Below are positions 2,895 through 59,590 of a stretch of 64,000 nucleotides of DNA, piece by piece; the first letter of the stretch is position 1; each line of letters begins with the position of its first letter. The notes under the pieces were generated by a model that worked only from the letters and a program-made list of their open reading frames with translations, was not told the origin of the DNA and ran no database searches. This DNA comes from an uncultured Clostridia bacterium (GTDB lineage Bacteria > Bacillota > Clostridia > Christensenellales > UBA1242). The stretch is taken from assembly GCA_945919375.1 (NCBI GenBank), contig CAMEJD010000006.1, positions 7,406 through 71,405 of the forward strand, read 5' to 3'. The position numbers were made by a program, and so were the translations under genes.

Positions 2895-3233
2895 TTAACT
2901 TAATAATTTAAAAATTGATATTATACCCTTTGCCCCACCAAATATTCCTTGTATCCATTGCGGTGCAACAATTGCGATTGTAAAGATAGCAATTGCAAGC
3001 AAAAGCAAAATCCCAATTATTATTTTTATAATCTTTCCCGCAAGACCGCCAAAAGCATAGCAACAAAGGAGTGTCAAAGCTCCATATTGCACTGCATAAT
3101 CAACATATTTTTGATATTCTGTTGGAATAGAAAACAAAGTTCCACCAACAACATCGTTAACTTTCAGCAAAGCAAGTGCCACAACAAAGACTGTTGTTAT
3201 TATTGATAACACAAAAAAATACATCTGCTTCAT
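2895..3233 (-). CDS. Small integral membrane protein, unknown function
   Basis: 112-aa ORF with three or four hydrophobic segments (LSIITTVFVVALALL, GALTLLCCYAFGGLAG, IIGILLLLAIAIFTIAIV). The antisense track ORF 2949-3206 is ignored. Confidence 0.5.
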   Translation of the reverse strand: MKQMYFFVLSIITTVFVVALALLKVNDVVGGTLFSIPTEYQKYVDYAVQYGALTLLCCYAFGGLAGKIIKIIIGILLLLAIAIFTIAIVAPQWIQGIFGGAKGIISIFKLLS

Positions 3234-3279
3234 ACTAACTCCTTTTTTATTATATCATTAGAATAAATTTTTGTCCATA

Positions 3280-4122
3280 TCATTTTGTTTTACACTTATT
3301 TGTAAGTTGTTTTAAATTATCTTTATGCTTTATTGTTAAAATAATTTCTTTTACAATTTTTTCAAGTTCGCTATTTTTTGAATAGTCAGTTTTTGCAGTA
3401 AAATTTATTCTGTTGCCATTTATCAAGCTAGACAAATACTGCTCACTTTTTTCGCCTTCCTTATAAACGCCAATTGCAAATCCACCACTTTTCATAATAA
3501 GACGCATACACGGAATATCTGTTGCACTATCTCCAATATAAATCATATTTGTCATTGGGATTGGTCTTAAATCATGGTCCATATGGTCATTAACTCTGTT
3601 GTCATTTACATTCAAAATACCTTTATTTATTCTGTATATGTATTGAGTTTTGTTTGTGTAATTTATTGCAATTGCCGGCCAAACGGGTTGGTTATGTTCA
3701 TTATATACAAAATAACCTGCATATATTTCCTTAAAATATTTTGCAATTTCTGTTCCTTCTATCATTTCCTTGATGCCCGAAGAAACAATATAGTGTTCAA
3801 TATTAACACCCACACTTTTGCCATATTCGTCAATTCTTTTAAACCAAGTTTTTACCCCATTATATAGTTCAATATTTTTACCACAATCTACAAGAGTTTG
3901 GCGTGTTAGGTTAATATTATGTTTTTTGTATTCGTTGACCATAACATACATATAGCCAAGAATATTATCAGCTTTATTTTTCTTGCAAAATTCTTCACAC
4001 TTATCCCAAAACTTATCTTCGCTTACTCCCAATTTGTCAATATAGCCATATGCCTGCATATCTTTTGGCGAAAGTGTTTTATCAAAATCATAAATAAGTG
4101 CAATCTTTGGTTTTGTTTGCAT
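3280..4122 (-). CDS. HAD-superfamily hydrolase (subfamily IB-like)
   Basis: Motif I DFDKT (IALIYDFDKTL) and motif IV GDSATD (IYIGDSATDIPCM) in a 280-aa ORF. Confidence 0.65.
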   Translation of the reverse strand: MQTKPKIALIYDFDKTLSPKDMQAYGYIDKLGVSEDKFWDKCEEFCKKNKADNILGYMYVMVNEYKKHNINLTRQTLVDCGKNIELYNGVKTWFKRIDEYGKSVGVNIEHYIVSSGIKEMIEGTEIAKYFKEIYAGYFVYNEHNQPVWPAIAINYTNKTQYIYRINKGILNVNDNRVNDHMDHDLRPIPMTNMIYIGDSATDIPCMRLIMKSGGFAIGVYKEGEKSEQYLSSLINGNRINFTAKTDYSKNSELEKIVKEIILTIKHKDNLKQLTNKCKTK

Positions 4123-4185
4123 AAGTACCCCTTTGTTTTATATTAAAAGAATAGCATCCCACATTTCAAATGTCAACAAAGATAT

Positions 4186-4476
4186 TTAGTCCATTTGAAT
4201 TATGTTGTCAATAAAATAACATATTTGGTTTTCAAATCTTATGTTCTTTTCCGTTAATTTTGATGCTTTGTTTAAATTTGTAACCAAACTATTTAATATC
4301 AATATATTATCTTTTCGAAGCATTTTTAGATTATCGTAGTTCTTTTTTGAAATAATGCCACTTTTGTATGCCATGCTTTCATTATCCATTTGTTCCTTTT
4401 CTTTGTAAGAGTATTTTATGACAAAATCCAAAAATTTGTCCAAGTACTCTTTTAATCTTTCATTTTTTGTTTCCAT
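4186..4476 (-). CDS. Hypothetical protein
   Basis: The ORF in the track starts at a TTG. The more plausible start is ATG at 4476 (METKNERLKEYLDKF...). No recognisable domain. Confidence 0.4.
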   Translation of the reverse strand: METKNERLKEYLDKFLDFVIKYSYKEKEQMDNESMAYKSGIISKKNYDNLKMLRKDNILILNSLVTNLNKASKLTEKNIRFENQICYFIDNIIQMD

Positions 4477-4572
4477 AAATTGCTCCACAAAAATAATAAA
4501 AGAATTACAAAAGAAAATACATAACAAAAAAAACTAGAATAAATCTAGTTTTGTCGAAAGTTTACAAAAAAC

Positions 4573-4929
4573 TTATTTGTCAAGGTCTTCACTAAAATTA
4601 TATCTTTTTAGTGCAGCATCCAATGTGTTATATTCGTTTTCTGAAATAGTTAAAGACCTACCATCAGTAAAACTTGCCCAACATTTTGATTTCTTTTTTA
4701 CATCATTTATATTTTGCAGATTAAACAATTTTTCTCCACAAACACAAAATCTTTTTTCTGCCCCACAAATTTTCCAAATCTTGTCAGCTTCGCTCCCTTG
4801 AAGCATTGCTGTTGTTGGGTTTTTTGGGTCTATTTTAAAAACAACAATCAAGCAATTGTCTGATTTAACATAGTCTATGTAATTGATGTCGTCCATTGCA
4901 TATAAACCTTCATCAATCTCCAAATACAT
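4573..4929 (-). CDS. Hypothetical protein
   Basis: ATG at 4929 (MYLEIDEGLY...) sits 6 nt after a GGAGG. No recognisable domain. Confidence 0.45.
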   Translation of the reverse strand: MYLEIDEGLYAMDDINYIDYVKSDNCLIVVFKIDPKNPTTAMLQGSEADKIWKICGAEKRFCVCGEKLFNLQNINDVKKKSKCWASFTDGRSLTISENEYNTLDAALKRYNFSEDLDK

Positions 4930-4994
4930 ACTAACCTCCAATATATTCGTAAACACTATAACACAATTTTAGTGCTTTTGCAATACCCTATGTT

Positions 4995-5531
4995 TTAATA
5001 ATTTTCTTTTCTTACTTCAAAGTAACTTTGTGGATGGTTGCAAACAGGACAAACATCTGGCGCTTTTGTTCCAACAACAATATGTCCACAATTTCTGCAT
5101 TCCCAAACCTTTACTTCACTTTTTTCAAAAACTTGTTTTGTTTCAACATTTCTTAAAAGTGCACGATATCTTTCTTCGTGATGTTTTTCTATTTCTGCAA
5201 CTGCCCTAAACTTGAAAGCAAGTTCCTTAAAGCCTTCTTCTTCTGCGGTTTTTGCAAAGCCTTCATACATATCTGTCCATTCATAATTTTCGCCATTTGC
5301 AGCGTCTTCAAGGTTATGGGCAGTGTTTCCAAGTTCGCCAAGTTCTTTGAACCACATTTTTGCATGTTCTTTTTCATTGTCGGCTGTCTTTAAGAATAAA
5401 TCAGCAATTTGTTCATATCCTTCCTTTTTTGCAACTGATGCAAAATATGTATATTTGTTTCTAGCTTGACTTTCGCCTGCAAATGCAGCCTTTAAGTTTT
5501 GCTCTGTTTTTGTTCCTTCGTACTTATTCAT
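4995..5531 (-). CDS. rbr: Rubrerythrin
   Basis: Ferritin-like diiron motifs ([32 protein letters not shown]) plus a C-terminal rubredoxin CxxC..CxxC (CRNCGH...CPVCNHP). Start taken at MNKYEG (ATG 5531), which has a GGAG upstream. Confidence 0.9.
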
Positions 5532-5542
5532 TTTTGTTCTCC

Positions 5543-5578
5543 TTTTCTTATATGTACACATTTTCTTATATGTACACA
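5543..5578. repeat. Perfect 18-bp tandem duplication (TTTTCTTATATGTACACA x2), each copy containing the palindrome TGTACA, just upstream of the rbr RBS
   Basis: Read directly: 5543-5560 and 5561-5578 are identical. In gene orientation this is TGTGTACATATAAGAAAA x2. Confidence 0.8.
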
Positions 5579-5614
5579 TGTGTTATAATATATATTTTGA
5601 TTTATGTCAACCGA

Positions 5615-6139
5615 TTATTCGCTTTTTGTTTGTTTCCTTTTTGCTAGCCCAATAAAAAATGATACAATTAGTATTGTTGAATATATACTTTCCATTATAA
5701 TTGGCGAAATGTTCCAAATAAGAACATTATACGTTAATATTGACATTGAAAAATAAACATTTATCCACACCATAACAGTCCTGTTATCTTGCCAACAAGC
5801 ATATGTAAATATAATATTTGCAATAAGCATAATTATGCTATACACACCTTCCCAAGTGTAAATAAAACCAAAAATAGTTATTAATTCTAGTAACGTTAAA
5901 AATATGTAATTTTTGTTAATGTTCTTTTTTGCAAGCACAGCAAATGTTGCACACCTAAAAATCGTCAACACAGCACCAACAAGCCCAATATATTCTCCCA
6001 AAACCAAATAGCCACTTGTCAAAAATATATTTCCAACAATGTTGCAAATCATAAATGCATCTTTTCTTTTAAAAAGGTATGCCGAAAGCATAATTATATA
6101 TCCAATAACAAATAAACCTTGTGAAATCCAGTACTCCAT
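5615..6139 (-). CDS. Polytopic membrane protein (possibly YgjV-like)
   Basis: Start at MEYWISQ (ATG 6139), 7 nt after a GGAG. The protein is uniformly hydrophobic with about 5-6 TM segments. The family assignment is only a resemblance. Confidence 0.4.
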   Translation of the reverse strand: MEYWISQGLFVIGYIIMLSAYLFKRKDAFMICNIVGNIFLTSGYLVLGEYIGLVGAVLTIFRCATFAVLAKKNINKNYIFLTLLELITIFGFIYTWEGVYSIIMLIANIIFTYACWQDNRTVMVWINVYFSMSILTYNVLIWNISPIIMESIYSTILIVSFFIGLAKRKQTKSE

Positions 6140-6249
6140 TTTTATCTCCAAAAATTGTAGTATAATTGTACATATTTTGATAAAAATTAGCAAAACAATT
6201 TAACAAAATTATAAAATTAGTGTATATTCTTCATATGAAAGGAATACAA

Positions 6250-7245
6250 ATGAGAACATTAATAAAAAAACCTAGTTTGCTCACCTATATTTATGCAGGT
6301 AATTTGATTAAAAATGGCGAAATTGTTGCTTTCCCAACAGAAACAGTATATGGACTTGGTGCAGATGCCACAAATGCCGAAGCAGTAAAGAAGATTTTTA
6401 TTGCAAAGGGTCGCCCACAAGATAATCCACTTATTGTGCACCTTGCAGAAAAGGAAGATATAAAAAAATATGTTACAGAAATAACAGAAAATCAACAAAA
6501 ACTTATTGATGCCTTTATGCCGGGGCCAATTAGCATAATTTTTGAAAAAAATGATGTAATATGCGATGAAGTTACAGCAGGTGGGAAAACTGTTGCAATA
6601 AGAATACCAGAAAACGAAGTAGCAAGAAAATTTATATACTATTCCCAAAGACCAATATGTGCACCAAGTGCAAATACGTCAAAAAGACCTAGTCCAACAA
6701 TTGCCCAACATGTTTATGATGATATGAACACAAAAATACCACTAATAATTGATGGTGGTGCAACAGATATTGGAATTGAAAGCACTGTTGTTAGAGTAAA
6801 CAAAAATTATGTATATATCTTACGACCAGGAAAAATAAATGCACAAATGATACTTGAAAAAACAGGTCTTGTTGCAATGTCAAAAATGGATACAAGCAAA
6901 ATACCACAATCTCCTGGAACAAAATACACTCACTACAAACCAAAATGCGATATGATTATCATTAAAAACGATGTGACAAAAAATATGAATGATATTTACA
7001 GACAAAAAACAAAAGAAGGCAAAAATGTTGTTATCTTTTGTAAAAAAGAAAATGTAAATAAATATCAAAACAAAAATGTTGTTGTTTTGGGTGAAAATAG
7101 TGAAGATGCAAGCAAAAACCTGTTCACTTATTTGAGAGAATATGAAAATAACGATTTGATACTTTGTGAATATTTTGATAATGGTGATATGGTTGATGCA
7201 CTCTTTAACAGAATGATAAAATCAGCGAGTGGGAATATAATTTAA
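6250..7245 (+). CDS. tsaC: L-threonylcarbamoyladenylate synthase, long Sua5/YwlC form
   Basis: FPTETVYGLGADATNAEAVKKIFIAKGRPQDNPLIVH and SAN.S..PSPT motifs plus the C-terminal Sua5 domain. ATG 6250 follows AAAGGAA; the track ORF begins at GTG 6220. Confidence 0.9.
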   Translation: MRTLIKKPSLLTYIYAGNLIKNGEIVAFPTETVYGLGADATNAEAVKKIFIAKGRPQDNPLIVHLAEKEDIKKYVTEITENQQKLIDAFMPGPISIIFEKNDVICDEVTAGGKTVAIRIPENEVARKFIYYSQRPICAPSANTSKRPSPTIAQHVYDDMNTKIPLIIDGGATDIGIESTVVRVNKNYVYILRPGKINAQMILEKTGLVAMSKMDTSKIPQSPGTKYTHYKPKCDMIIIKNDVTKNMNDIYRQKTKEGKNVVIFCKKENVNKYQNKNVVVLGENSEDASKNLFTYLREYENNDLILCEYFDNGDMVDALFNRMIKSASGNII

Positions 7246-7260
7246 TAAAAATATTTAGTT

Positions 7261-7298
7261 AAAAAAAGAAAGTTGAAATTTCAACTTTCTTTTGTTTT
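7261..7298. terminator. Bidirectional intrinsic terminator
   Basis: Perfect palindrome AGAAAGTTGAAATTTCAACTTTCT (7267-7290) flanked by A- and T-runs, between convergent tsaC and the LRR gene. Confidence 0.75.
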
Positions 7299-8682
7299 AT
7301 GCCGTCAATGTAATTTGTCCATCTGTAAAGATAACGGTAACAGTAGCAGGTATACTAGGACTATTATCAACACTCCATACACCATATTCTGATTTCGTTA
7401 TTTTGTTCCATTGAGCTTGTGTGCCGTTATAATATATCGTTTTTAATGCATTACAACCATTAAATGACAGACCTATACTTGTCACACTAGTAGGAATAGT
7501 TACACTTGTCAAACTATAACATTGTTCAAATGCAAAGTTTTCTATTGTTTGAACACCGTCTTCAAATTTTACAGATGTTATATTTATTCCTTCAAATACA
7601 CCTTGCCCTATCTTTTTTACAGTACCCGGAATAATCAACTCGTTTCTCAAATTGTTTCCTGAAAAATTGAACTGCTGAATATCTGTAATATCACCAAAAT
7701 CTATTGCTTCGATATTTTTACATGCTGTATAAGTAAATTGTAGGATACCATCACCATTTGATTTTGCTCTTGCACTATATATTCCTGTTTGACCATAGAA
7801 CATTAGATTACTGCGATAAGTTTCAACACCGGTGATTCTTGTAACACCTTGACATCCTACTACACACATTGTTTGGCAACTTTCAACTGTGCTTGGCAAA
7901 ACTAATGTTGCTATCCCACTTGTTGCAAAAGGACTGATTGGGACTTGGAGACCAAATTCTTTCACTTCCATATAACTTGCAGGTTCAATTATACAATTTT
8001 CTGGAATTACAACCAAACCTGTTATATTTTCTTTTGGTGTTACTTTGTTATCTGAACTAATATTAATTTTTGCTAAGTTCTCTTGGCTTCTTGAATAATC
8101 ACCATTGCCAATTTTAAGATTCATTGTGTAACTTACATTTTGTATACCCGATTTAAAATCTTCAACACTTATTACATAATATATCTTTTTTGACTCTGTG
8201 TTTGTTATTGCTTTTTGCATAACATTATTACCTTGAACAACATTTGAACTATCACCTATTGTCCATTCGGCAATTGCCCAAACATTTACACTTGGACTCA
8301 AGTTTTGTATATCCATTTCAACTGCATAACTTTTGTTTGTTGATGAGAAATCTAGGTTGATATTCTCTTTTGTAAATGCACTTGAATTTGTTGAATCAAA
8401 CTCATCAAATGAAAAACTTGCATCTTGTGAAAAGCCTTCACTTGCAAGAGTTTTTGTTCCACTTGCAAAATCTTCACTAAGTAACTCCAACTGACCACGA
8501 TTATATAAATTTGTACCTTTGTATACTTTTGTGTTCACTTTTACAAATGCATCAGTAACTTCATAACTAATTGTACCACCAATATTGTAACTTACTTGCA
8601 TTGCCGAAAAAACCCCAAAGCAAAGCACTGCAAGGGCAAAGCACATTGTTGCAAGGGACATTGCTAGTTTAAATTTTTTCAT
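7297..8682 (-). CDS. Surface-anchored protein: family N-module fused to BspA-type LRR domain
   Basis: The N-terminus MKKFKLAMSLATMCFALAVLCFGVFSAMQVSYNIGGTISYEVTDAFVKVNTKVY is shared with three paralogs. The C-terminal half has LRR_5-type repeats (IPGTVKKIGQGVFEGINITSVKFEDGVQTIENFAFEQCYSLTSVTIPTSVTSIG) and the tail IYYNGTQAQWNKI...TVIFTDGQITL. Confidence 0.75.
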   Translation of the reverse strand: MKKFKLAMSLATMCFALAVLCFGVFSAMQVSYNIGGTISYEVTDAFVKVNTKVYKGTNLYNRGQLELLSEDFASGTKTLASEGFSQDASFSFDEFDSTNSSAFTKENINLDFSSTNKSYAVEMDIQNLSPSVNVWAIAEWTIGDSSNVVQGNNVMQKAITNTESKKIYYVISVEDFKSGIQNVSYTMNLKIGNGDYSRSQENLAKINISSDNKVTPKENITGLVVIPENCIIEPASYMEVKEFGLQVPISPFATSGIATLVLPSTVESCQTMCVVGCQGVTRITGVETYRSNLMFYGQTGIYSARAKSNGDGILQFTYTACKNIEAIDFGDITDIQQFNFSGNNLRNELIIPGTVKKIGQGVFEGINITSVKFEDGVQTIENFAFEQCYSLTSVTIPTSVTSIGLSFNGCNALKTIYYNGTQAQWNKITKSEYGVWSVDNSPSIPATVTVIFTDGQITLTA

Positions 8683-8733
8683 ATATTCTCCTTTTGTTTA
8701 GTATAGGAAAAACCAATACTATTATTCAATTTT

Positions 8734-8763
8734 AGTATACCCCCCCCCTAGGGTATTTGTCAA
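8734..8763 (-). promoter_or_regulatory. Sigma-A-type promoter (TTGACA-N18-TATACT) with a G9 homopolymer inside the spacer
   Basis: Minus strand: TTGACA (8758-8763), spacer AATACCCTAGGGGGGGGG (8740-8757; C-run 8740-8748 on the plus strand), TATACT (8734-8739). It lies about 50 nt upstream of the 8682 start. It shares TCATTTGACA...TATACTAAAAT with the promoter at 16926-16955. Confidence 0.5.
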
Positions 8764-8875
8764 ATGAAAAGCAAAAGTCTTTTGAAAATTTTTTAATAGT
8801 CATTTCTTTTTTAATAGTCATTTTGACCATCGATTCACTAACGGACAAAGAAGAAATCTAAACTTCTTTTTATTA

Positions 8876-8910
8876 TAAAAAATACCCATTTTTTTCATGG
8901 GTATTATTTT
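8876..8910 (-). terminator. Intrinsic terminator downstream of the J-domain gene
   Basis: AATACCCAT-loop-ATGGGTATT hairpin (8881-8905) followed by a T-run on the minus strand. Confidence 0.65.
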
Positions 8911-9402
8911 TTAATCAATAATCATACACAACGCAATTATTCCAATTATTATTGCCAAAATAATTATTATGTATATTGTTAGTTTTTTATTTTCTCGTTT
9001 TTCACTGTCATCTTCACTAACCTTGACTACTTGTTGTTTTACCTTTTGTGGTCTTATTTTTGATTTTTGATTTTTATCTTGTTTATGCTTATTTTGATGT
9101 AAATTGGTTCTAAATCGCCTAAAAAACTCTTTCAATACAAAATCATCTTCACTTTTTGTTGCTTTTGTTTGCTCTTGTTTTGGTTCAACCCTTTCAAGTT
9201 CAATATCGTAAACTCTTCTTTTTTCATCGTCTTTGAGTGTTGCATAACATTCATTTATTAGTGCAGTTTTGTCTTGGGCAAATTCTTGGTCGCCATCAAA
9301 AACATCTGGATGATATTTTTTTAGCATTGACAAATAAGCAAGTTTTATTTCTTGCTTACTTGCATTCCTATTTACACCTAACTCTTTATAATAATTTATC
9401 AA
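8911..9402 (-). CDS. J-domain protein with C-terminal membrane anchor
   Basis: YYKELGVNRNASKQEIKLAYLSMLKKYHPDVF (HPD motif), a basic K/Q-rich linker and the C-terminal TM LTIYIIIILAIIIGIIALCMI. The TTG start overlaps the uvrA stop by 4 nt. Confidence 0.7.
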   Translation of the reverse strand: MINYYKELGVNRNASKQEIKLAYLSMLKKYHPDVFDGDQEFAQDKTALINECYATLKDDEKRRVYDIELERVEPKQEQTKATKSEDDFVLKEFFRRFRTNLHQNKHKQDKNQKSKIRPQKVKQQVVKVSEDDSEKRENKKLTIYIIIILAIIIGIIALCMIID

Positions 9403-14302: not shown

Positions 14303-14740
14303 TGTACAAAAATTTGGCAGTAAACGAAGTATTGCGTAGTTTTTATTAAAAACCAGTAATGTGTTGTACCAAAATTTAATAAAAACAAGCAAGACGAGGC
14401 TCATCGTCAAAACTCTCGCTTGTACTCATTTTGAATGTCTTACATTCAAAATCTCGGTTCGCACGCTCGGTTTTTCCTTTCCCCAAAAACAACAACTGTT
14501 TTTGGGGTACCCCATATGCGTCCACGCAGGAGTTTGGACTTCCAAATGACTGTGTGGAAAATTTGGCAGTAAACAAAGTATTGCGTAGTTTTTATTAAAA
14601 ACCAGTAATGCGTTGTACCAAAATTTAATAAAAACAAGCAAGACGAGGCTCGACAAATTTTCAACGCAGGAGTTTGGTTTTCCAAATGACTGTGTGGAAA
14701 ATTTGGCAGTAAACAAAGTATTGCGCAGTTTTTATTAAAT
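14303..14740. repeat. Tandem array (2 full units plus 1 partial) of a ~140-bp structured repeat; the first unit carries a ~120-bp insert module (14403-14523)
   Basis: AATTTGGCAGTAAAC[G/A]AAGTATTGCG[T/C]AGTTTTTATTAAA recurs at 14311, 14561 and 14701; in the first two copies the unit continues ...AACCAGTAATG[T/C]GTTGTACCAAAATTTAATAAAAACAAGCAAGACGAGGCTC. Hairpin cores ACGCAGGAGTTTGG-NNNN-CCAAATGACTGTGTGGAAAATTTGG are at 14524-14566 and 14664-14706. The short ORFs the track reports here are repeat artefacts. Confidence 0.85.
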
Positions 14741-14921
14741 TTTGCTTGGTGGTGGTAAACTCAAATACCCCCTTATATATAAAATAACTCTTTTCATAAT
14801 CTCTCTTAAATTATTTACCTGCAATTCTACCACATAAATGCAGATTATGTCAAGAGTTGTATTTTACTTTACAAAAGTACTAAAAACAAGTAAACTATTA
14901 TGATTACAAATAGGAGAAGAA

Positions 14922-30008: not shown

Positions 30009-30611
30009 ATGGCGAAACAAAAGTATATAAGATGTCCTAGATGTGAATTAAATTATATTTTGGAAGACGAAGGGCTTTGCAGTGTTTGTAAGGCTGAATT
30101 GCAAGTTGGTGGAGATAAAGAAGATATGGAACTCTGCCCTGTTTGCAAAACAAACTACATTTCTAGTGATGAAATAATGTGTCCTCAATGTATGGAAGAA
30201 AGGAATATTAGTCCAGAAACAATTGCAGACCAAGACCCAGATGATTGGTCAAAATATGTCAATCAAGATGAAAATGAAAATTATAATGAAGACGAAGATA
30301 ATGATTTGACACCAAAAGATGACCTTGATGACGACGATGATATGCTTGATGATGACCTTGATGATGACGACATTATCTTTGACGATGACGACGAAAAAGA
30401 CGATGACTCTGACACAAAAGAGAAAGACGACTTTGACAAAGAACTTGACGATCTTGATGACCTTGATGACGACGACCTTGACGATGACGATGATGACCTT
30501 GATGACGACGACGATGATGAAGATGATGAAGATGACGATGATGATGACCTTGATGACAACGACCTTGACGAACCAAAAAAGCCAACAAAAGCAAAAAAGA
30601 GTAAAAAATAG
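30009..30611 (+). CDS. Double zinc-ribbon protein with a ~100-aa poly-aspartate/leucine tail and a basic C-terminus
   Basis: CPRC..CSVC and CPVC..CPQC pairs in the first 65 aa. Then DDLDDDDDMLDDDLDDDDIIFDDDDEKDDD...DDDLDDDDDDEDDEDDDDDDLDDNDLD, ending KKPTKAKKSKK. Confidence 0.6.
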   Translation: MAKQKYIRCPRCELNYILEDEGLCSVCKAELQVGGDKEDMELCPVCKTNYISSDEIMCPQCMEERNISPETIADQDPDDWSKYVNQDENENYNEDEDNDLTPKDDLDDDDDMLDDDLDDDDIIFDDDDEKDDDSDTKEKDDFDKELDDLDDLDDDDLDDDDDDLDDDDDDEDDEDDDDDDLDDNDLDEPKKPTKAKKSKK

Positions 30612-37681: not shown

Positions 37682-37764
37682 GCGGATGTGGTGAAATTGG
37701 CAGACACGCAAGACTTAGGATCTTGTTCGAAAGAGTGGGGGTTCAAGTCCCTTCATCCGCACCA
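37682..37764 (+). tRNA. tRNA-Leu (anticodon UAG), encoded CCA
   Basis: Acceptor GCGGATG/CATCCGC, anticodon stem CAAGA/TCTTG with loop CTTAGGA, a long variable arm, TTCAAGT T-loop and terminal ACCA. Confidence 0.9.
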
Positions 37765-37770
37765 AACACC

Positions 37771-37795
37771 AAAAAGTCCAAAGGACTTTTTTTCA
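37771..37795 (+). terminator. Hairpin plus T-run after tRNA-Leu
   Basis: AAAAAGTCC-AAA-GGACTTTTTTT. Confidence 0.55.
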
Positions 37796-37824
37796 TTAGT
37801 AAATTATTCCTAAACAATTAATAT

Positions 37825-37899
37825 TGGGGTATCGCCAAGTGGTAAGGCATTGGACTCTGACTCCAACATCCGTAGGTTCGAATCCTACTACCCCAGCCA
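37825..37899 (+). tRNA. tRNA-Gln (anticodon CUG), encoded CCA
   Basis: TGGGGTATCGCCAAGTGGTAAGGCA start is typical of tRNA-Gln. Anticodon stem TTGGA/TCCAA with loop CTCTGAC, TTCGAAT T-loop, 3' TACCCCAGCCA. Confidence 0.9.
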
Positions 37900-37907
37900 T
37901 TAGAAAA

Positions 37908-37980
37908 AACATCGCCCTTTTAATTCGATTTGAAATTGTCATTTCAAATCTTCATTTTTGGGGCGTGTTTTTTCTTCTTA
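37908..37980 (+). repeat. Copy 1 of a ~73-bp direct repeat with a terminator-like hairpin GATTTGAAAT-TGTC-ATTTCAAATC followed by TTCATTTTT
   Basis: 69/73 identical to 38059-38131. It starts 8 nt after tRNA-Gln(CUG). Confidence 0.8.
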
Positions 37981-38058
37981 CCCACCATGCGAAAACTCCG
38001 CTTCGCTAAGGAGTTTTGTGGGTACTTCCCTTCGGAGTATGTCTTTGCTTTCTTATTG

Positions 38059-38131
38059 AACATCGCCCTTTTAATTCGATTTGAAATTATCATTTCAAAT
38101 CTTCATTTTTGGGACGTGTTGTTTCTTTTTA
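38059..38131 (+). repeat. Copy 2 of the ~73-bp direct repeat
   Basis: AACATCGCCCTTTTAATTCGATTTGAAATTATCATTTCAAATCTTCATTTTTGGGACGTG..., 151 bp downstream of copy 1. Confidence 0.8.
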
Positions 38132-38196
38132 CTTAGCATAAATAACTATCAATTTAAACTTTTTAAAAAAATTGTAAAAATATTTTGAAAAATGTC

Positions 38197-38225
38197 TTTA
38201 CATTTTGATTTCAATATTATATAAT
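38197..38225 (+). promoter_or_regulatory. Sigma-A-type promoter TTTACA-N17-TATAAT for tRNA-Gln(UUG)/tRNA-Lys
   Basis: TTTACA at 38197-38202 and TATAAT at 38220-38225, 12 nt before the tRNA 5' end. Confidence 0.6.
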
Positions 38226-38237
38226 ACAAAAGCGTAT

Positions 38238-38312
38238 TGGGGTGTAGCCAAGTGGTAAGGCACGAGACTTTGACTCTCGCATGCGTAGGTTCAAATCCTG
38301 CCACCCCAGCCA
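38238..38312 (+). tRNA. tRNA-Gln (anticodon UUG), encoded CCA
   Basis: TGGGGTGTAGCCAAGTGGTAAGGCA; anticodon stem CGAGA/TCTCG with loop CTTTGAC; TTCAAAT T-loop; 3' CACCCCAGCCA. Confidence 0.9.
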
Positions 38313-38428
38313 AATGTGCTTTGCACATCCCAAATGAATTTGTAAGTTCCCCCAATTTATAAATTCATAAATCGATTATGATTTTGACTTATAGGCATTC
38401 GCTTATAGTCAAATCAAACCCCCTTTAT

Positions 38429-38504
38429 GGTTCACTAGCTCAGCCGGTAGAGCACTTGACTTTTAATCAAGGGGTCTCGAGTTCGAATCTCGAGTGAGCC
38501 ACCA
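38429..38504 (+). tRNA. tRNA-Lys (anticodon UUU), encoded CCA
   Basis: Acceptor GGTTCAC/GTGAGCC, D-arm TAGCTCAGCCGGTAGAGCA, anticodon stem CTTGA/TCAAG with loop CTTTTAA, and TTCGAAT T-loop. Confidence 0.9.
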
Positions 38505-45226: not shown

Positions 45227-46825
45227 ATGAACAGTAATTATAAGTTTAGAATTTTTTATAATTCTATTGACGGATGTAAAAGTGATTCTCGATGGATTTT
45301 AACAATAGAAACAAATCTACTGACTAAACAGCAATTGGACGGAATCTTAAAGAATTATTTTACAATCAATTCTGACATAATTAGTTCTGTAAAAAAGAAT
45401 GTGACAATCCCACAAAATATTCAATTCTTTCAAACATATAAAATTCGCAACATTTTCCAATATTACTGCGAAGATATTAATATTGGAGATAATGCAATTT
45501 TATTATTTCAAAACTATGAAATCCTCAATGAAAAATCATCTATATCCCAATATATAAACCATTTTATTAATGGCTTGCAAACAATAGAAAAAAATATTTT
45601 TCTGTTTAAAGTTATAAGTTCAAAAAGTTTATTAAGAAAACTAGCAGGGTCTTTATGCTTTAGAATTGAAGACTTAAATAAAATTGATATTTTGAGTTTT
45701 AAACTAGATGAAATAATCACTATACAAAATTCATTAAAAAACATAGATTTTCGAAAACCACTTGACTATTTAAGTGATTTAGATTCCGTATTACAAGACA
45801 ATTACCCTTACCTTCATTCAAAGTATAATTTTAAAAAAAACATAGTGTTGTCCAACGAAGATGCAGCACAAATTTATAATATCCCAGCATCAAAATATAA
45901 GTATTTATTATATAGAGATATAAGTAAATTCCGCAGGTTTTTATATTCAAATAATTTACATTCACAAAAAACAAAGAAAAAAATAGATATTTATTCTTCA
46001 CTTTTAAAAGTCCTATTTTATTCTGACAATGATTATATCATTAGCAATTACGAACTCAATTCGTTTTATAATAACGCATATAAAAGCTTCATATTTGATA
46101 TTTATATAAGACAAATTAATATTCCTAATAGTCTTCATAATTGTAAATATATTGATCTCAGAGGAGACTTATATGAGATTATTGAAAATTTACCTACTGT
46201 AGTAAATGTGAAAAAACTTAATAATCTTATGATTATATGGGAAAAAAGATTAAATGGTTTCATCCCATATATTAAATTTAAATCATTTATATCTACACCT
46301 TATCATAAATATGGTGAAACTTATGCTCTTTCTCAAATTGGTGAAAATAAGGGGTTCATTAATGGCAAGATTGTTACAGATAATGAAATCTATCAACATA
46401 TCTTTAGGTGCATATTCCCAAATGGTGCAAACATTACAAATAAAGATAACATTAAAAAATTAAAATATATTGCAGATAGAAAGTATGGACTAACAAATAA
46501 TGTAGAATCTAATGCTGTAATTAAAAAGATTTTATCTAATCCAAAGTTCATACAAATAGATAAGAATATTTATAAATATTACAATGATACACTAATTGAT
46601 ATCAATTTATATAACGAATTATATAAGTATATCAAAACACATAAGTATGTTGAATGGAATGATTTATTTAATAAGTTTAGCAAAATATTAAAAACTAAAA
46701 TGATTATAACTCCTACAATGCTTCATAGTTGTTTACAACAAGTTTACAATAGTAATAGCCTCAATAATAAAAGACGAATAATTGTATTTACAAAAGTTGC
46801 TGCTTATGTTAGACGCCATTATTAG
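45227..46825 (+). CDS. Hypothetical N/I/K/Y-rich protein, no recognisable domain
   Basis: 532-aa ORF that is visibly more AT-rich than its neighbours. It is the only plus-strand gene within a ~18-kb run of minus-strand genes. Confidence 0.5.
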   Translation: MNSNYKFRIFYNSIDGCKSDSRWILTIETNLLTKQQLDGILKNYFTINSDIISSVKKNVTIPQNIQFFQTYKIRNIFQYYCEDINIGDNAILLFQNYEILNEKSSISQYINHFINGLQTIEKNIFLFKVISSKSLLRKLAGSLCFRIEDLNKIDILSFKLDEIITIQNSLKNIDFRKPLDYLSDLDSVLQDNYPYLHSKYNFKKNIVLSNEDAAQIYNIPASKYKYLLYRDISKFRRFLYSNNLHSQKTKKKIDIYSSLLKVLFYSDNDYIISNYELNSFYNNAYKSFIFDIYIRQINIPNSLHNCKYIDLRGDLYEIIENLPTVVNVKKLNNLMIIWEKRLNGFIPYIKFKSFISTPYHKYGETYALSQIGENKGFINGKIVTDNEIYQHIFRCIFPNGANITNKDNIKKLKYIADRKYGLTNNVESNAVIKKILSNPKFIQIDKNIYKYYNDTLIDINLYNELYKYIKTHKYVEWNDLFNKFSKILKTKMIITPTMLHSCLQQVYNSNSLNNKRRIIVFTKVAAYVRRHY

Positions 46826-46899
46826 AAAATTTAGGTTCATACTAGCTTTTTACAGATTTGATATTTACATTTTTAAAATGTTCAATGCAAAATTAACCA

Positions 46900-47325
46900 C
46901 AAGTGCAAGGCTCGACAAAATCGCCACCGCAGGAGTTTGTAAATCAAAAATTAAAAAAATGGCCCGAAATTCAAGGCTCGCTTTTGGCATTATTTGGTTT
47001 GTTTAACTAAAAAAATGCAAAATTAGGAGACGTATTTGAGGCTCGCATAATAAATGCCGGCAGGAGTTTGCTTACGCAAATAGGGCTTCGCCCTTTTAGT
47101 CGGCGTCGCATATTTAAGTTTATGCAAGCATGTCTTCTATATGCTCCTTGTAATGACTGTGGCATTTTGTTATGCAAAAACTAAAAGTTTGCTTAACATA
47201 AAAATTAAAAAAATAGCCCGAAATTCAAGGCTCGCTTGGTATTTACACGCAGGAGTTTGCTAACGCAAATGACTGTGTGTAAATTGCCAAGCAGAAACAA
47301 AGAAGTTCGGAGCTATTTTTTTAAT
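46900..47325. repeat. Cluster of four units of the structured hairpin repeat family (two intact, two degenerate)
   Basis: A/GAGGCTCG at 46907, 46973, 47038 and 47227. CGCAGGAGTTTG-type cores at 46927-46939, 47059-47080 and 47248-47279. AAAAATTAAAAAAAT[G/A]GCCCGAAATTCAAGGCTCG is repeated at 46946-46980 and 47200-47234. Confidence 0.85.
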
Positions 47326-47328
47326 TTT

Positions 47329-47640
47329 TTAGCCTTGGTAAATAATAAGACTAACAAAATATAATACTATACATATTGCCATAATTGATACACAAGCAAT
47401 AGTTGCACGAGAAAGTTTTACATTTCTTGATTCACCTTTGTTTTGTGCATAATAACTTTCTTGACTTGAACCAGTTAATGCACTTTGTCCATCATCGTTG
47501 GCATTCGATTGCAAAAGTGTTGTAACAATCATAATAACTGCACAAATAGCTATCATACAAACAAGAACTATTCTTATGATTGGGAATGAACTTGTTACCC
47601 AATATGGCATTGATGATTCCAATAATAAATTTTGTTTCAT
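47329..47640 (-). CDS. secG: Preprotein translocase subunit SecG (probable)
   Basis: Two TM segments separated by a G/S/Q-rich loop. IMIVTTLLQS resembles the SecG VLLQ motif, followed by K..R...L.R.T..... 103 aa, with GGAG 5 nt before the ATG. Confidence 0.55.
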   Translation of the reverse strand: MKQNLLLESSMPYWVTSSFPIIRIVLVCMIAICAVIMIVTTLLQSNANDDGQSALTGSSQESYYAQNKGESRNVKLSRATIACVSIMAICIVLYFVSLIIYQG

Positions 47641-48496: not shown

Positions 48497-51400
48497 TTAT
48501 GCATGAACCCAAACAGGTTTTAAAGTTATATTTGATGTAACTTTTAATGATGATGCACCAGAATACTTACCGTCATATAAATTTTGCACACTATCTCCCC
48601 AAGCAACTGTTTTAAAATTATATTTTGGCCCGCCATATGAATATACTGCCGTTGCAATATAATTGCCAAATACCAAATCAGTATTCCTTTCTATTTTAAC
48701 TTGGTTTGTACCATTTGTGTTAGAAACATTTGAAACACTCTTTTTTGAACCACTTGATATCCACCAACCCGGTTTTGTCCAAGCATTAACATCAAATGTT
48801 ACAATGCAATATTCTTTAACATCCCAAACTGCTATATATTTGTTATCACCAGCAACTGTTAAAACACTGGTACTTGTAATTAACTCATCATTTCCTTCAA
48901 GTTTGTATCCAACAAATTTATATTCAACAGTGTATGAGCCTTTATTTTCTTCATAACTTGAATATTGTGGAAGCAAAAGATTTGAACCTTCATACAATGT
49001 TTGTTTGTTAAAATATGGGTTTCCATTTGGTGTTGTATAATTTGAAACAACAGTTACATAGTATTCATTTCTCATGTACCAAATTGAGTCTTTGCTAACA
49101 ACAAAAGACTTAATTAAGTTGTCTTTATCAAAGTTTGAAGACGAATAAACTAGGGTTGAGTCTTTGTAAATATCTAGTGATTTTATATCAAATACATCAT
49201 CTGCTTTAACTTTCCCAGAATATACAATTTGGCTGTTGTGATATATTGTCAATGAATATGTTTTTGTAATAATTTCTTCCCATTTTGCATAAAGTGTGAT
49301 TTCATCATCTTGGAAAGTTGTTTGGGTGTAGTCTTTTCCGTCAACAGTTTGCCAACCCAAAAATACTTTTAGTTTTGATGTATTGTTGTCAATTTGCTCT
49401 TCCAAATTTGATAACCTTGGAAGAGATAATTCTTCCCCAACAAAACCTGTTATTGAATCAAGTTCAACTCTTTCATCGTTTGTAACAAAATAAATTTTTG
49501 TATACTTCTTTTGTTCTTTTATTTCCCATTTTGCAAAAAGTGTTGTATTTGTGTTTGGGAAAGTGTCTTGATTAAATTTGTTTTTATAATTACTGTCAAG
49601 ATACCAACCAACAAAGGTATAAGTTGTTCTTGTAATTTTGTCATCAACAATTCTATCTTGCATACTTGGGAAATTGATTTTTGAAGCAATTATCCCCGTT
49701 TGAGTTGATATTGTTTCACTATTATCAATAAAATATACACTTCTTTCATCTTTGTTTGCTTGTTTCCAACTTCCTGTGCCTTCTTTTTGGTATTCGCCAT
49801 TAAGCCCAAACCCATAAACATTGTCGTAAGTGTCAATAAATTTTGTTGCCTTTGAAATATCAACACTTTGACCAATGTCAATCAAAAACAAGGATTCTTT
49901 ATCACTTTGATTGCTTGAACTATCCGTCTTTAACGAAATCAAACCATCAAGTACTTGCAAGTCTATATCAAGACGTTTGAAATAGTCTTTTCCGTCACCT
50001 GTCATTTGATTTGATGTTTCAATAATAATTGAAAGTGTACCAATGTCAGGATTATGTGCAAGTTCTGCAAGGTTCACAACAATTGTATGTTTGCTATTGT
50101 TATGAGTGTATTCTTTTACAATATTGCCATAATCGGTTTTACCTTCATATGCTTGACTCTTGTCTATTGCTTCGTTTATTTTGTTTTGAATTGAGTCTGT
50201 GAAACCAAACAAATATTGCATATAATATTTGATATTTTCAAATAGATAACTTGGTTCAATTTTTGTCATTCTTGAAAATTCCTTGCATGCACCAGACTTG
50301 CCATCAATTGTTGACAAATATATGTTACCATCATGGAAATAAATTGTTATTACTCTTTTTCTTGAAAGAAGGGCAACACCATTAGAATTTGCATTATTAA
50401 CTCCGGTTATGATTGGATAGTTATTAAGTTCAATAAATCCGTCCCAACCTATTATTTCCTTTTCGATTATTTCGCCAGTTTCTTCATCAAGTTCTTTTGT
50501 TTTTGTTATTATCTTTTTTATTCTTGCATCAACACCAACTGTTGCGGCATCAAATTTTATTCCAATATCAACATTAAGTTTTATTCCACCAACAATATGG
50601 AAATCGTTAAGATTTGAAGTATTAACAAATGCTCTAATTAAATCTTTTGAATCAGACAAATCAATATACTTTTCAATGTTTTCAACTTGTTTTACACCAC
50701 TATATTCATTAAATACAATATTTGCAAAAAGAACTTCGTTAGTTTCCACATTTGTTATTAGGTTGTTGATTTCTATATTTGTTAGTTTATTATTGTTATA
50801 GCAAATTCTGATTGTTATATCTTTTCCATTTGCATATTCGCCAAGTTTTTCACCTTTTAGGACAATTGTTAAATCTGTGTCTGTATAGTTTATGGTTTCA
50901 ACATATTCAAGCAAAGCAAGTGGATTAGACATATCAAGTTTTGGTAAAATCTCCGACAAATTACCTGTATCAATATCTTCTTTTGTCAAAAAGTCATTTA
51001 GTAGTGGAATTGATGAAACATCAATATTAAACGCACTGCAAAGAATGCTTAAAATCTCTTGAATTGCATCTTCCCTAATCTTGATTTTTAGGCCAGTTTC
51101 CCCACCATAGCAAAAATACAACGCTTTGTTTGAGTAGTGTACCGTGATTTGTTCATCAAGTCCGGATACATTAACATATGCATTAAGCAAACTTGTTAAA
51201 TCAAGGTTGACATCGCAATCAATATTTTGTATTTGTTTTGAACCTTTATACTTGTTTACACTAACATTCAAATTGAATTGTTTTTGCATTATTTGGTTGT
51301 ACACATTTTCTATCAATGTTGTGTAATTTGTATATGGTTTAAATTCTTGCTTATTCAAATTACTTAAATCAAATTTCTCAAAGTTTGTACATTCCAAAAT

Positions 51401-57922: not shown

Positions 57923-59590
57923 TTATGAACCAGAAGTTGTTGATGGGTTGACTGTTACTGTCCCATCAGTGCAAGTTACAACAACATCTTTGTTGCCACA
58001 AAAGAAATCTGTTCCTATTCCTTTAATAGCATTCCATTGTGATACTGTTCCAGTATATATTACAGATTTTAACTTGTCGCAAAGCAAGAAAGCATTCTCA
58101 GCAATCTCTATTACACTTGAAGGAAGCGTTACTGTGGTAAGATTACTGCATTCGCTGAATGCACTTCCTTCAATTATCTCAACCCCACTTGGAATTACAA
58201 ATGAAGATTTATCCATACAACTTCCAAACGCACCTGTGCCTATAATTTTAACACTCAATGGAATGCTTGAATTCTTACAACCTAGGACCAATCTATTTGT
58301 CGCTGTTTCAATTAAACAATTTGAACCATCTGGGCAATTGTAAACCGTGTTGCCTGCTTCAACTGAAATAGATGTTAGATTTTCAAATTCAGCAGTTTCC
58401 AATATCGATCCGCTTTCTTCATCTTTAAGGTAACATATTATTTTCTTTAAACTTGCCGGGATTTCAATTTTTGTTACATTTTTAATGTTTGTTTCTATTG
58501 ATATTGATGCAAGTGCTTCGCCCGCAATTAATTTTACTCCTTCTAGCATTTCTTTTGTAATTTCAGTAACTGTTAATTTTTTACTTGCAAGCCAATATTT
58601 TACCGAAGAATTGTCACTTGCCGAAACAATTCCAAATCCTTTTTCTGTAAAAGTAATTGCTGTTAATGGTATTGCTAGATATCCAATATATTCAATAGTA
58701 CTTGGCAATTCTATACTCTTAATTAATTCGCACCCAAAAAATGCTCCACCCATTATATGTGTCAGCTTTGTATTGTTTGCAAACGAAATACTAGTGAATC
58801 CGCACTGATAGAAAGCGTTAACACCTATTGTCGTCAATTTTGAACCACTTTCGAATGTAAGACTAGTTAATCCAGATGAATAAAATGCCTCATTATTGAT
58901 GTTTGTAACATTGGCAGGAATTACAATTTCTGTCAATGCTCTACAACCATAAAATGCTCTTGGCCCTATTTCTGTTAATTGTGAATTAGTTCCAATAGTT
59001 ACACTAGCCAAACTAGTGCACTTCTCAAAAGTAGAGAACTCTATACTTGTCACCTTGCTTGGAATATTTATTTTTGTAATGTTTGAACCTGAAAATGAAC
59101 CAAATGCTGTTATTGGCAAATCTTCCCCGTCAAAGTTATATGTTTCAGGAATCGTAACTTCTCCAGATAAAGTGGTTATATCAATTGGTGCAACACTCAA
59201 TTCTTTCCCACCATTTATTTTTGTATACCTTAACTCAGTGGACGTGTCATCAACAAAAGAAGTTACAGAAATTGTGACATTCATTTTATTTTCATCCGAA
59301 GTTATATCCTCAGTGTGTGCTATAACAATACACAATGGAAACTCAGATTCGCCCCCTCCTATGGGTGTATTTCCTGTTAATGATGACGAAGGCTCTATGA
59401 CAAAAGCAAATGGTTTAACATTTTCCACTTCACTAAATGTGGCACAGTTTTGCGATATAAATTCTATCGCAAGCACTTTAAGATCGCTACCATTTTTATC
59501 TTTTAAACTTACACTAACATTTAAAGCATTATTTCCCTCTGGCAAATCAGTAATTTTATAGTTATATATCCATGAATATACATAGTTCAT
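57923..59590 (-). CDS. BspA-type LRR protein lacking its own signal/anchor (probably the detached C-terminal part of 59641-60357)
   Basis: LRR_5 repeats (IPSKVTSIEFSTFEKCTSLASVTIGTNSQLTEIGPRAFYGCRALTEIVIPANVTNINNEAFYSSGLTSLTF) and the family tail VIYTGTVSQWNAI...VVTCTDGTVTV. There is no hydrophobic N-terminus, and the frame is open 24 codons upstream of the first ATG. Confidence 0.7.
   Translation of the reverse strand: MNYVYSWIYNYKITDLPEGNNALNVSVSLKDKNGSDLKVLAIEFISQNCATFSEVENVKPFAFVIEPSSSLTGNTPIGGGESEFPLCIVIAHTEDITSDENKMNVTISVTSFVDDTSTELRYTKINGGKELSVAPIDITTLSGEVTIPETYNFDGEDLPITAFGSFSGSNITKINIPSKVTSIEFSTFEKCTSLASVTIGTNSQLTEIGPRAFYGCRALTEIVIPANVTNINNEAFYSSGLTSLTFESGSKLTTIGVNAFYQCGFTSISFANNTKLTHIMGGAFFGCELIKSIELPSTIEYIGYLAIPLTAITFTEKGFGIVSASDNSSVKYWLASKKLTVTEITKEMLEGVKLIAGEALASISIETNIKNVTKIEIPASLKKIICYLKDEESGSILETAEFENLTSISVEAGNTVYNCPDGSNCLIETATNRLVLGCKNSSIPLSVKIIGTGAFGSCMDKSSFVIPSGVEIIEGSAFSECSNLTTVTLPSSVIEIAENAFLLCDKLKSVIYTGTVSQWNAIKGIGTDFFCGNKDVVVTCTDGTVTVNPSTTSGS

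Follow-up and report, generated by a model that had tools for sequence, protein, structure and literature searches.

A lineage-specific family of rod-shaped hairpins at gene ends in low-GC Christensenellales-like gut Clostridia

Introduction

The closest described counterparts of the element reported here are interspersed intergenic repeats that fold into hairpins. The REP/BIME/REPIN group consists of multi-copy extragenic imperfect palindromes that lie at gene 3' ends and between the genes of operons, form arrays, are co-transcribed with the upstream gene, and have the capacity to act as 3' hairpins; for some REPs, proximity to the stop codon is said to matter. ERIC (IRU), BOX, RUP, Correia, and Bacillus cereus bcr elements are also interspersed and intergenic, form long hairpins, and occur in full, truncated, and insert-bearing versions; they are 100-155 bp long, are co-transcribed with their neighbors, and can terminate or stabilize transcripts. 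Integron attC sites (57-141 nt) conserve structure over sequence, sit at the 3' end of an open reading frame (ORF), and function as a folded strand antisense to it, and bidirectional intrinsic terminators place an A-run, a GC-containing stem, and a T-run between convergent units, with gene ends within a few bases. Each of these systems resembles in part a ~130-nt hairpin element that we describe from a 64,000-nt stretch of DNA (the window) of an uncultured Clostridia bacterium (contig CAMEJD010000006.1, positions 7,406 to 71,405), where it forms two arrays, locus 1 (14309-14744) and locus 2 (46885-47333).

Results

A family of rod-shaped hairpins with covarying stems

Locus 1 is one site of a lineage-specific family of ~130-nt rod-shaped hairpins in low-GC Christensenellales-like gut Clostridia, and the family is previously undescribed. 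The locus holds 2.3 family units arranged head to tail. A repeat search found a 94-nt direct repeat at 14309/14558 (98% identity, spacing 249) and a 79-nt direct repeat at 14521/14661 (95% identity, spacing 140), which put the copy starts at 14309, 14558, and 14698 and bear out a preliminary description of three copies near 14311, 14561, and 14701. The ~120-bp insert that had been proposed for copy 1 is present, replaces the 5' arm, and, beyond the original claim, is a conserved module in its own right that recurs in other units. It is probably also the reason why the 140-bp array went unreported by TRF. The motif order and perfect arm pairing given earlier were also confirmed: from 14645 to 14718 the blocks run GAGGCTCG, arm, CGCAGGAGTTTGG-NNNN-CCAAATGACTGTG, arm, CAGTAAACAAAG, and the inner arms of the intact unit, CAAATTTTC (14654-14662) and GAAAATTTG (14697-14705), pair with each other. 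The hairpin of ~25 bp that had been taken for the unit turned out to be the inner part of a rod of 126-140 nt with a further helix (helix 2) and an outer stem. In the intact unit of locus 1, the outer stem is a perfect 17 bp (CAAAATTTAATAAAAAC/GTTTTTATTAAATTTTG), and the whole forms a 126-nt rod-like hairpin with a predicted energy of -47 kcal/mol (z = -7.9). The core pattern has three matches in the whole window against 0.00 expected, so that chance is excluded; covariance-model E-values of 1e-28 to 1e-36 were counted toward the same conclusion.

The consensus unit starts from an outer stem, usually an A-run paired with a T-run, that leads into helix 2 (6-7 bp; NAARWWC/GWWRUUN) with its central conserved purine-purine mismatch; variants of this helix are AAGAAC/GTTATT in some units and GAAATTC/GAAGTTC in many. 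Above helix 2 lies an asymmetric conserved internal loop, RAGGCUCG opposite CAG(N)AAACRMAG, and then a variable helix of ~13 bp that is free to covary in sequence while keeping a U.G wobble and a bulge. The rod continues through a conserved helix, CGCAG/CUGUG, which contains a G.U pair, and ends with tandem G.A, a G.U pair, a helix of 4-5 bp, and a loop that is often UNAC, presumably a tetraloop of that class.

Support for this fold was assessed across 46 distinct units. Standard pairs fill 94.9% of cells compared with 69.1% after shuffling (none of 500 shuffles reached the observed value) and 36-47% when the partners were slid by 1-3 columns. Changes on both sides were seen in 31 of 39 pairs, in agreement with RNAalifold, and the covariation score of 0.578 stands against 0.139 for shuffled alignments (again 0/500) and 0.07-0.14 for slid ones, with 433 cells changed on both sides versus 133 in the control. 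Compensatory change beyond both controls is the generic mark of a structured RNA, and the family has it; the further copies therefore behave as the preliminary description expected of a conserved, structured, unannotated hairpin element, a claim that is supported. Divergent units beyond the search pattern show compensation even inside the "conserved" helices (e.g., CGAAG/CUUUG and CUUAC/GUAAG). Loop nucleotides stay fixed while the stems turn over, which argues for recognition by a factor and not merely for hairpin stability. The core blocks served to find the copies, and their invariance is partly by construction because they were the search pattern, a dependence that the degenerate scan and the covariance model relax only partly.

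Retrieved loci outside the window are labeled with L-numbers (L001, L032, etc.). A core-pattern scan of species-representative genomes gave 19 loci in eight metagenome-assembled genomes (MAGs) labeled uncultured Clostridia or Christensenella sp., one of which (CAMEUD01) carries units on seven contigs, and a degenerate-pattern scan gave 21 metagenome loci. Many units sit close to contig ends. A covariance model trained on 23 units recognized 54 units at E < 1e-10 in the retrieved sequence and, within the window, only locus 1 and locus 2; the hairpins flagged earlier at ~47046-47291 thus belong to the same family. Rfam 15 at gathering thresholds returned only five tRNAs over the whole window. 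With E-values up to 10, both loci drew only matches of the miRNA-precursor type at 15-27 bits (thresholds 78-144), so the Rfam check suggested in the preliminary description gave no significant match at either locus. IMG/VR held no match to the exact or degenerate core patterns, blastn against GenBank phages and PLSDB plasmids found no match to the units, and literature searches returned only unrelated primer matches for the core strings and only taxonomy and genome papers for the lineage.

Several other identities were tried and rejected. A small peptide encoded within the unit (AGGAG-N13-AUG) has neither a conserved frame nor a conserved stop, and its AUG changes to GUG or UAA jointly with its pairing partner. 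Hairpin, hammerhead, and other ribozyme cores, loop E, signal recognition particle-like motifs, attC, and Xer/dif sites were compared and none appears to fit; nor does the K-turn, because the tandem G.A comes without a 3-nt bulge.

Units abut the ends of convergent, highly expressed genes

Of 32 array-terminal units, ~27 by our tally have the end of the convergent gene within or at their outer 3' arm. The units are oriented antisense to the abutted genes, which are described as highly expressed. These genes encode ribosomal proteins (S7, S18, L1, L9, and L19, and the S12-S7 operon), translation factors and enzymes (EF-G, a release factor, and three class II aminoacyl-tRNA synthetases, lysyl-tRNA synthetase being among the genes named), and GAPDH, PPDK, YchF, SecG, DnaN, Spo0A, cardiolipin synthase, an ArsR regulator, and small proteins. 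Once (L006 4798-5142 and L031 4617-4961), the neighbor is the RNase P RNA gene (283 bits), whose 3' end is overlapped by 14 nt by the convergent unit. The association therefore concerns transcript ends rather than stop codons or translation. The RNase P RNA case was also the ground for rejecting a general role in ribosome stalling or translation termination, which a "stop codon in stem" had suggested.

The rpsG-fusA spacer carries a unit after the rpsG stop in four lineages (L004, L005, L013, and L037), and the variable helices and outer stems differ between them, which shows that the unit has been kept at an orthologous site while its stems evolved by compensation. L032, from a more distant lineage, has three units within 6 kb (3689-9366) that follow an aminoacyl-tRNA synthetase, an ArsR regulator, and a release factor gene. 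A unit follows rplA in L017, and none follows rplA in the window. All-against-all comparison of ORFs from 19 loci revealed only orthologous neighbors and no recurrent neighboring protein, and no pnuC or ynbB homolog was seen beside any of the 40 retrieved loci, part of whose neighbors were annotated.

A GC-richer repeat with a period of ~60 nt (TGCGTTT[AG]CAC...GCTCGCC...GACACA) adjoins units in L002 (~1-440) and L017 (~2104-2343). In L017, it occupies the site expected for the rplJ (L10) leader after rplA.

The two strands of the unit differ in fold and in context

We refer to the strand of the abutted gene as gene-sense and to the opposite strand as unit-sense, which is the plus strand in the window. 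The unit-sense fold is ~10 kcal/mol more stable than the gene-sense fold in all 41 of 41 units. In the inner rod, the unit strand has 69 G.U pairs and no A.C mismatches, compared with six G.U and 50 A.C on the gene-sense strand, and outside the invariant pairs the unit-sense strand has 47 stacked G.U versus nine A.C mismatches; the G.U counts take in pairs shared by descent as well as independent events. Every gene-sense mismatch is of a kind that becomes G.U or G.A on the opposite strand. GC skew identifies the minus strand of the window as the leading strand; the units are therefore antisense to leading-strand genes and lie on the leading-strand template.

Context points the other way. The gene-sense strand is certainly transcribed, as judged from context, and this strand has features of its own: roughly half of the units offer CGAGCC and GGYUY as paired arms that enclose a 10-nt loop just ahead of U6-8, and variants of this small hairpin keep pairing through G.U on the gene-sense strand only. 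The small hairpin is exactly what 3'-truncated copies retain. Most units (the B-type and its relatives) also have the A-run/T-run outer stem. On the unit-sense strand, TGnTAGAAT lies ~7 nt before the first paired base only in L006, L010, and L016. The only strong promoters near the L032 units are those of the next genes, just beyond the units, and just ~15 nt separate the terminator of the upstream gene from the unit at L032:3689. The strand evidence is thus in conflict, with context favoring gene-sense transcription and structure favoring the unit-sense fold.

Organization of the two arrays and their insert modules

Features of both arrays are listed in Table 1. In unit orientation, 3'-truncated copies occupy the long spacer that precedes an intact unit, and they always retain the A-rich arm and GAGGCTC. 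Units multiply locally through tandem duplication and then decay.

Table 1. Positions and components of the features of locus 1 and locus 2 in the window
Locus	Feature	Position	Strand	Components and scores
1	3' fragment of unit (array begins mid-unit)	14309-14350	+	P1 3' arm AAAATTTGG; CAGTAAACGAAG; helix-2 3' arm; outer 3' arm GTTTTTATTAAA
1	Long-form unit	14375-14599	+	Outer stem TTTAATAAAAAC/GTTTTTATTAAA; GAGGCTCA; insert module i; conserved apical hairpin (14525-14554); CAGTAAACAAAG
1	Insert module i, ~120 nt	14404-14523	+	Begins after GAGGCTCA; two hairpins, CATTTTGAATG..CATTCAAAATC and CCCCAAAAAC..GTTTTTGGGG
1	Intact unit	14619-14744	+	118.6 bits, E = 6e-29; base to tip: 17-bp outer stem; helix 2, GCAAGAC/GTATTGC with G.A mismatch; internal loop, GAGGCTCG/CAGTAAACAAAG; P1, CAAATTTTC/GAAAATTTG; apical helices, CGCAG/CTGTG, tandem G.A, TTTGG/CCAAA; TTTT loop
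1	20-codon ORF, MKRVILYIRGYLSLPPPSKI	14735-14797	-	ATG at 14797-14795; TAA within outer stem of intact unit
1	Near-consensus promoter	14853-14824	-	TTGACA-18-TAGAAT with TG, 11/12 matches; directed into array, opposite to unit strand
2	3'-truncated unit	46885-46945	+	Stops just past GCAGGAGTTTG
2	3'-truncated unit	46946-46997	+	Stops within P1
2	Unit with insert module ii	47016-47200	+	Module at 47082-47151, between GCAAAT and AATGACTGTG; P1, CATAATAAATGCC/GGCATTTTGTTATG
2	Intact unit	47201-47333	+	145 bits; -63.2 kcal/mol, z = -11.7; A-run/T-run outer stem, terminator-like in both directions

The genes flanking locus 1 are an NMN-transporter gene (pnuC) and a gene of the Met_gamma_lyase/YnbB type; this pnuC/ynbB setting was described correctly, but the element is not specific to it. 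In the only other contig with the same ynbB protein, the intergenic region is likewise 730 nt, a comparison of length. Locus 1 has no convergent annotated gene and lies between pnuC and a strong promoter with a mini-ORF. The earlier statement that no promoter lies inside the unit was incomplete, as this near-consensus promoter stands just outside the array on the opposite strand. No plus-strand promoter was found at locus 1, whereas the minus strand has this strong one, and the succession of minus-strand promoter and ORF (14735-14853) means that the array is read toward pnuC, antisense to the units. The minus strand also has weak terminator-like hairpins, and promoter-like sites lie directly by the pnuC start. 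The 20-codon ORF contains a PPP run and could either encode a pnuC leader peptide or have arisen by chance. In the long-form unit, the P1 5' arm is replaced by the insert, and the covariance model still matches 14473-14607 at 56 bits.

Locus 2 is flanked on one side by a 532-aa orphan ORF and on the other by convergent secG (47329-47640, minus strand), whose TAA is inside the 3' end of the intact unit. By our reading, TAAAAT stands 7 nt upstream of the first partial unit. The 532-aa ORF (45227-46825, plus strand), directly upstream of the locus, is rich in Asn, Lys, and Ile; it has no Pfam or NCBIfam match and is not a conserved neighbor of units. Further along are a 1926-aa protein (48497-54277, minus strand), for which only a Listeria-Bacteroides repeat was matched, and a BspA-type leucine-rich repeat protein (57923-59590).

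Module i recurs at the matching unit position in L009/L012 (L009 ~3920-4040) and L014 (~3160-3280). At three unrelated loci, its site is inside the 5' arm of the variable helix, and compensatory changes occur in its stems. The module would be an optional domain of the unit or else a separate element that targets the unit. Module ii, of ~70 nt (AGGGCTTCGCCCT ... TATGCTCCTTGT), is present in locus 2 and in L001 (~3590-3660) and in partial form in L016, L008, and L010. Its CUCCU could pair with the AGGAG of the unit.

Other features of the window

Dense GAT/GAC-rich tandem repeats with periods of 9-36 fill 30300-30600, within an ORF (30009-30611) that encodes a double zinc-ribbon N terminus, and give its product a long acidic, Asp-rich tail. 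A tRNA cluster at 37682-38504 comprises Leu, Gln-CTG, Gln-TTG, and Lys, and near-identical 13-nt tandem repeats (ATTTCAAATCGTC / ATTTCAAATCATC) follow tRNA-Gln(ctg) at 37928-37957 and precede tRNA-Gln(ttg) at 38079-38108.

Discussion

We tentatively favor, with a confidence that stops somewhat short of an even chance, an RNA-level gene-end (terminator) module in which the conserved inner rod serves as the platform for a putative factor. The outer stem with its U-run, together with the small alternative hairpin, would end the transcript of the neighboring gene. Read in reverse, the long rod would join the distant arms so that the stem could stop transcription heading antisense into a highly expressed gene; such joining would explain why the rod is optimized on the unit-sense strand without a promoter of its own. 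The inner rod appears to be properly formed only on the strand antisense to the neighbor and might there offer a binding platform, a putative partner being suggested by the invariant loops and by the units that have no U-run.

Several observations weigh against this gene-end module. A simple terminator would suffice, since the other genes on the L032 contig use ordinary short ones, and the need for a 130-nt rod with invariant loops is not explained by termination. A clear U-run is absent in either direction from rpsG-type units and from the locus-1 units, so termination cannot be the whole function. A position-specific search revealed no clustering of -10 boxes at any set distance from GGCT or the stem base, and no consistent sigma-70-type promoter lies upstream of the units, so the unit-sense RNA is a putative product. 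The internal loop can also close on the gene-sense strand as GUUU/GAGC with G.U pairs, so the strand asymmetry is not all one way. Lastly, no partner protein was found, and ORFs around 19 loci yielded no recurrent neighboring protein family.

Much of the same evidence could be accommodated by a hairpin that acts only in the 3' untranslated region of the gene-sense transcript, where it could terminate transcription in the manner of REP/ERIC elements, block 3' exonucleases, or mark a site of RNase processing between cistrons; that the opposite strand folds better would then be incidental. With the gene end in the outer arm, transcription of the neighbor must read into every unit; the other strand has no general promoter, and transcription from the near-consensus promoter of locus 1 runs through the array in the gene-sense direction. 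The gene-sense strand also lets the internal loop close as GUUU/GAGC, and the compact CGAGCC/GGYUY hairpin with its U-run, whose variants pair via G.U there alone, is exactly preserved in the 3'-truncated copies; units also lie between the co-transcribed rpsG and fusA. We nevertheless consider this explanation unlikely, as the gene-sense inner rod combines its 50 A.C mismatches with a 3x3 pyrimidine loop and few G.U pairs, is the less stable fold in every unit compared, and carries only mismatches that turn into G.U or G.A on the opposite strand, a regularity that is unexpected under mere tolerance. If the unit strand is the one that matters, its RNA-like character (tandem G.A and a purine-purine mismatch, three G.U/U.G wobbles that are conserved, loops rich in purines, and an apical loop that is often UNAC) might instead reflect free-standing small RNA genes, each with its own promoter, a ~125-nt protein-bound rod RNA as product, and a bidirectional terminator shared with the neighbor. 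The TGnTAGAAT boxes 7 nt ahead of the first paired base in L006, L010, and L016, and our TAAAAT box at the same distance from the first partial unit of locus 2, are consistent with such genes. Most units have no recognizable promoter, the unit at L032:3689 leaves only the ~15 nt after the upstream terminator, and locus 1 has its strong promoter on the wrong strand; strict abutment to convergent, highly expressed genes would also be unexpected for independent small RNA genes, and we regard them as a decidedly improbable explanation.

The element could also act at the DNA level, as a non-autonomous mobile or recombination element (REPIN-, MITE-, or attC-like, MITE being a miniature inverted-repeat transposable element) whose single-stranded hairpin is recognized by a transposase or recombinase encoded elsewhere. 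Its multi-copy, dispersed occurrence, frequently at contig ends, its tandem arrays, in which copies may be truncated or nested, its two recurring insert modules, and the variable presence between related species (after rplA in L017 but not in the window) would suit such an element. So would the uniform orientation relative to leading-strand genes, as in single-stranded DNA transposons, the fact that G.T is likewise the best tolerated mismatch of DNA hairpins, and the conserved loops with covarying stems, a combination shared with integron attC sites. Yet there are no conserved terminal inverted repeats and, by eye, no target duplications, the outer stems differ from copy to copy, and neither the surroundings of the 40 loci nor the examined parts of the window showed a transposase, integrase, or reverse transcriptase. 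The strand that folds well is the leading-strand template, whereas IS200/IS605 and REP elements use the lagging-strand template. Orthologous retention with compensation across four lineages points to host-level selection, and the phage, plasmid, and viral collections gave nothing; on balance a DNA-level element is rather improbable. A cis-regulatory leader (riboswitch or attenuator) of pnuC or the ynbB-like gene fits the situation of locus 1 between pnuC and the strong minus-strand promoter with its 20-codon ORF, and the weak minus-strand terminator-like hairpins there, but units also stand after more than 20 other, unrelated genes as well as after an RNA gene, locus 2 sits between convergent genes, Rfam returned no riboswitch match, and the pnuC start has its own adjacent promoter-like sites. 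This alternative is highly improbable, and a pnuC/ynbB riboswitch as the general explanation is close to refuted by the many other contexts.

A further proposal, which we hold to be possible if somewhat doubtful, is that the inner rod is the functional part: an RNA or single-stranded DNA ligand of a dedicated putative protein, placed antisense at the ends of the most expressed genes, and hence a new class of gene-end ribonucleoprotein or recombination signal. The rod would then be more than a decorated terminator or a selfish repeat and might insulate core genes from antisense transcription or from replication-transcription conflict. Whatever its role, a structured element with 54 copies and 31 covarying pairs is missing from Rfam, and its host is an uncultured, reduced-genome gut lineage from which, to our knowledge, almost nothing non-coding has been reported. 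Location at highly expressed 3' ends (including that of an RNA gene), orthologous persistence, and an antisense-optimized inner fold are an unusual trio for bacterial interspersed repeats, and they provide a testable case of a repeat family under host-level structural selection. There are also practical consequences: the units break assemblies, many of them lying at contig ends, and they mark transcript boundaries, which could improve the annotation of these MAGs.

In its genomic behavior, the family groups with REP/BIME, ERIC, BOX, RUP, Correia, and bcr repeats: it has many dispersed intergenic copies, full and truncated forms, and a position at gene ends, as interspersed repeats generally do. 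The preliminary description had set REP/BOX-type elements aside, which stands as far as sequence is concerned, since the family is unrelated to them; its dispersed, multi-copy occurrence in ~8 MAGs makes it an element of the REP/ERIC/BOX kind nonetheless. Its earlier exclusion from riboswitches, CRISPR repeats, and attC sites was upheld. For CRISPR and type III toxin-antitoxin repeats, the period is 140 nt, the "spacers" are parts of the hairpin, and no cas or toxin genes lie nearby. A MITE would call for terminal inverted repeats, which are absent family-wide, and no flanking direct duplication was seen by eye. attC sites carry a RYYYAAC/GTTRRRY pair with AAC/GTT, of which there is no conserved counterpart here (helix 2 is GAAATTC/GAAGTTC in many units); integrase and cassette arrays are absent near the units, whose neighbors are core housekeeping genes.

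REPs are 20-40 nt long, conserve stem sequence, begin with 5' GTAG, alternate in orientation, and are served by RAYT transposases. The units described here are ~130 nt (126-140 nt), vary and covary in their stems, have their conserved blocks in loops, and run head to tail in uniform orientation; a Pfam scan of 39 neighboring proteins (up to 8-14 kb around the matches) found neither a RAYT nor any other transposase-like family. ERIC, BOX, RUP, Correia, and bcr elements are mainly conserved in sequence (terminal inverted repeats or box modules), occur in either orientation, and have no sequence similarity to the family, which differs from them in its invariant internal loops, covarying 13-bp and outer helices, and strict antisense orientation. 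An intrinsic terminator needs ~10 bp and a small loop, whereas in these units the place of the loop is taken by 90 nt of conserved rod that contains G.U, G.A, and internal loops rich in purines. Four features set the family apart from REP, ERIC, BOX, MITE, and attC elements: its loops are conserved while its stems covary freely, its arrays run head to tail, its units are uniformly antisense, and they abut the ends of the most expressed genes.

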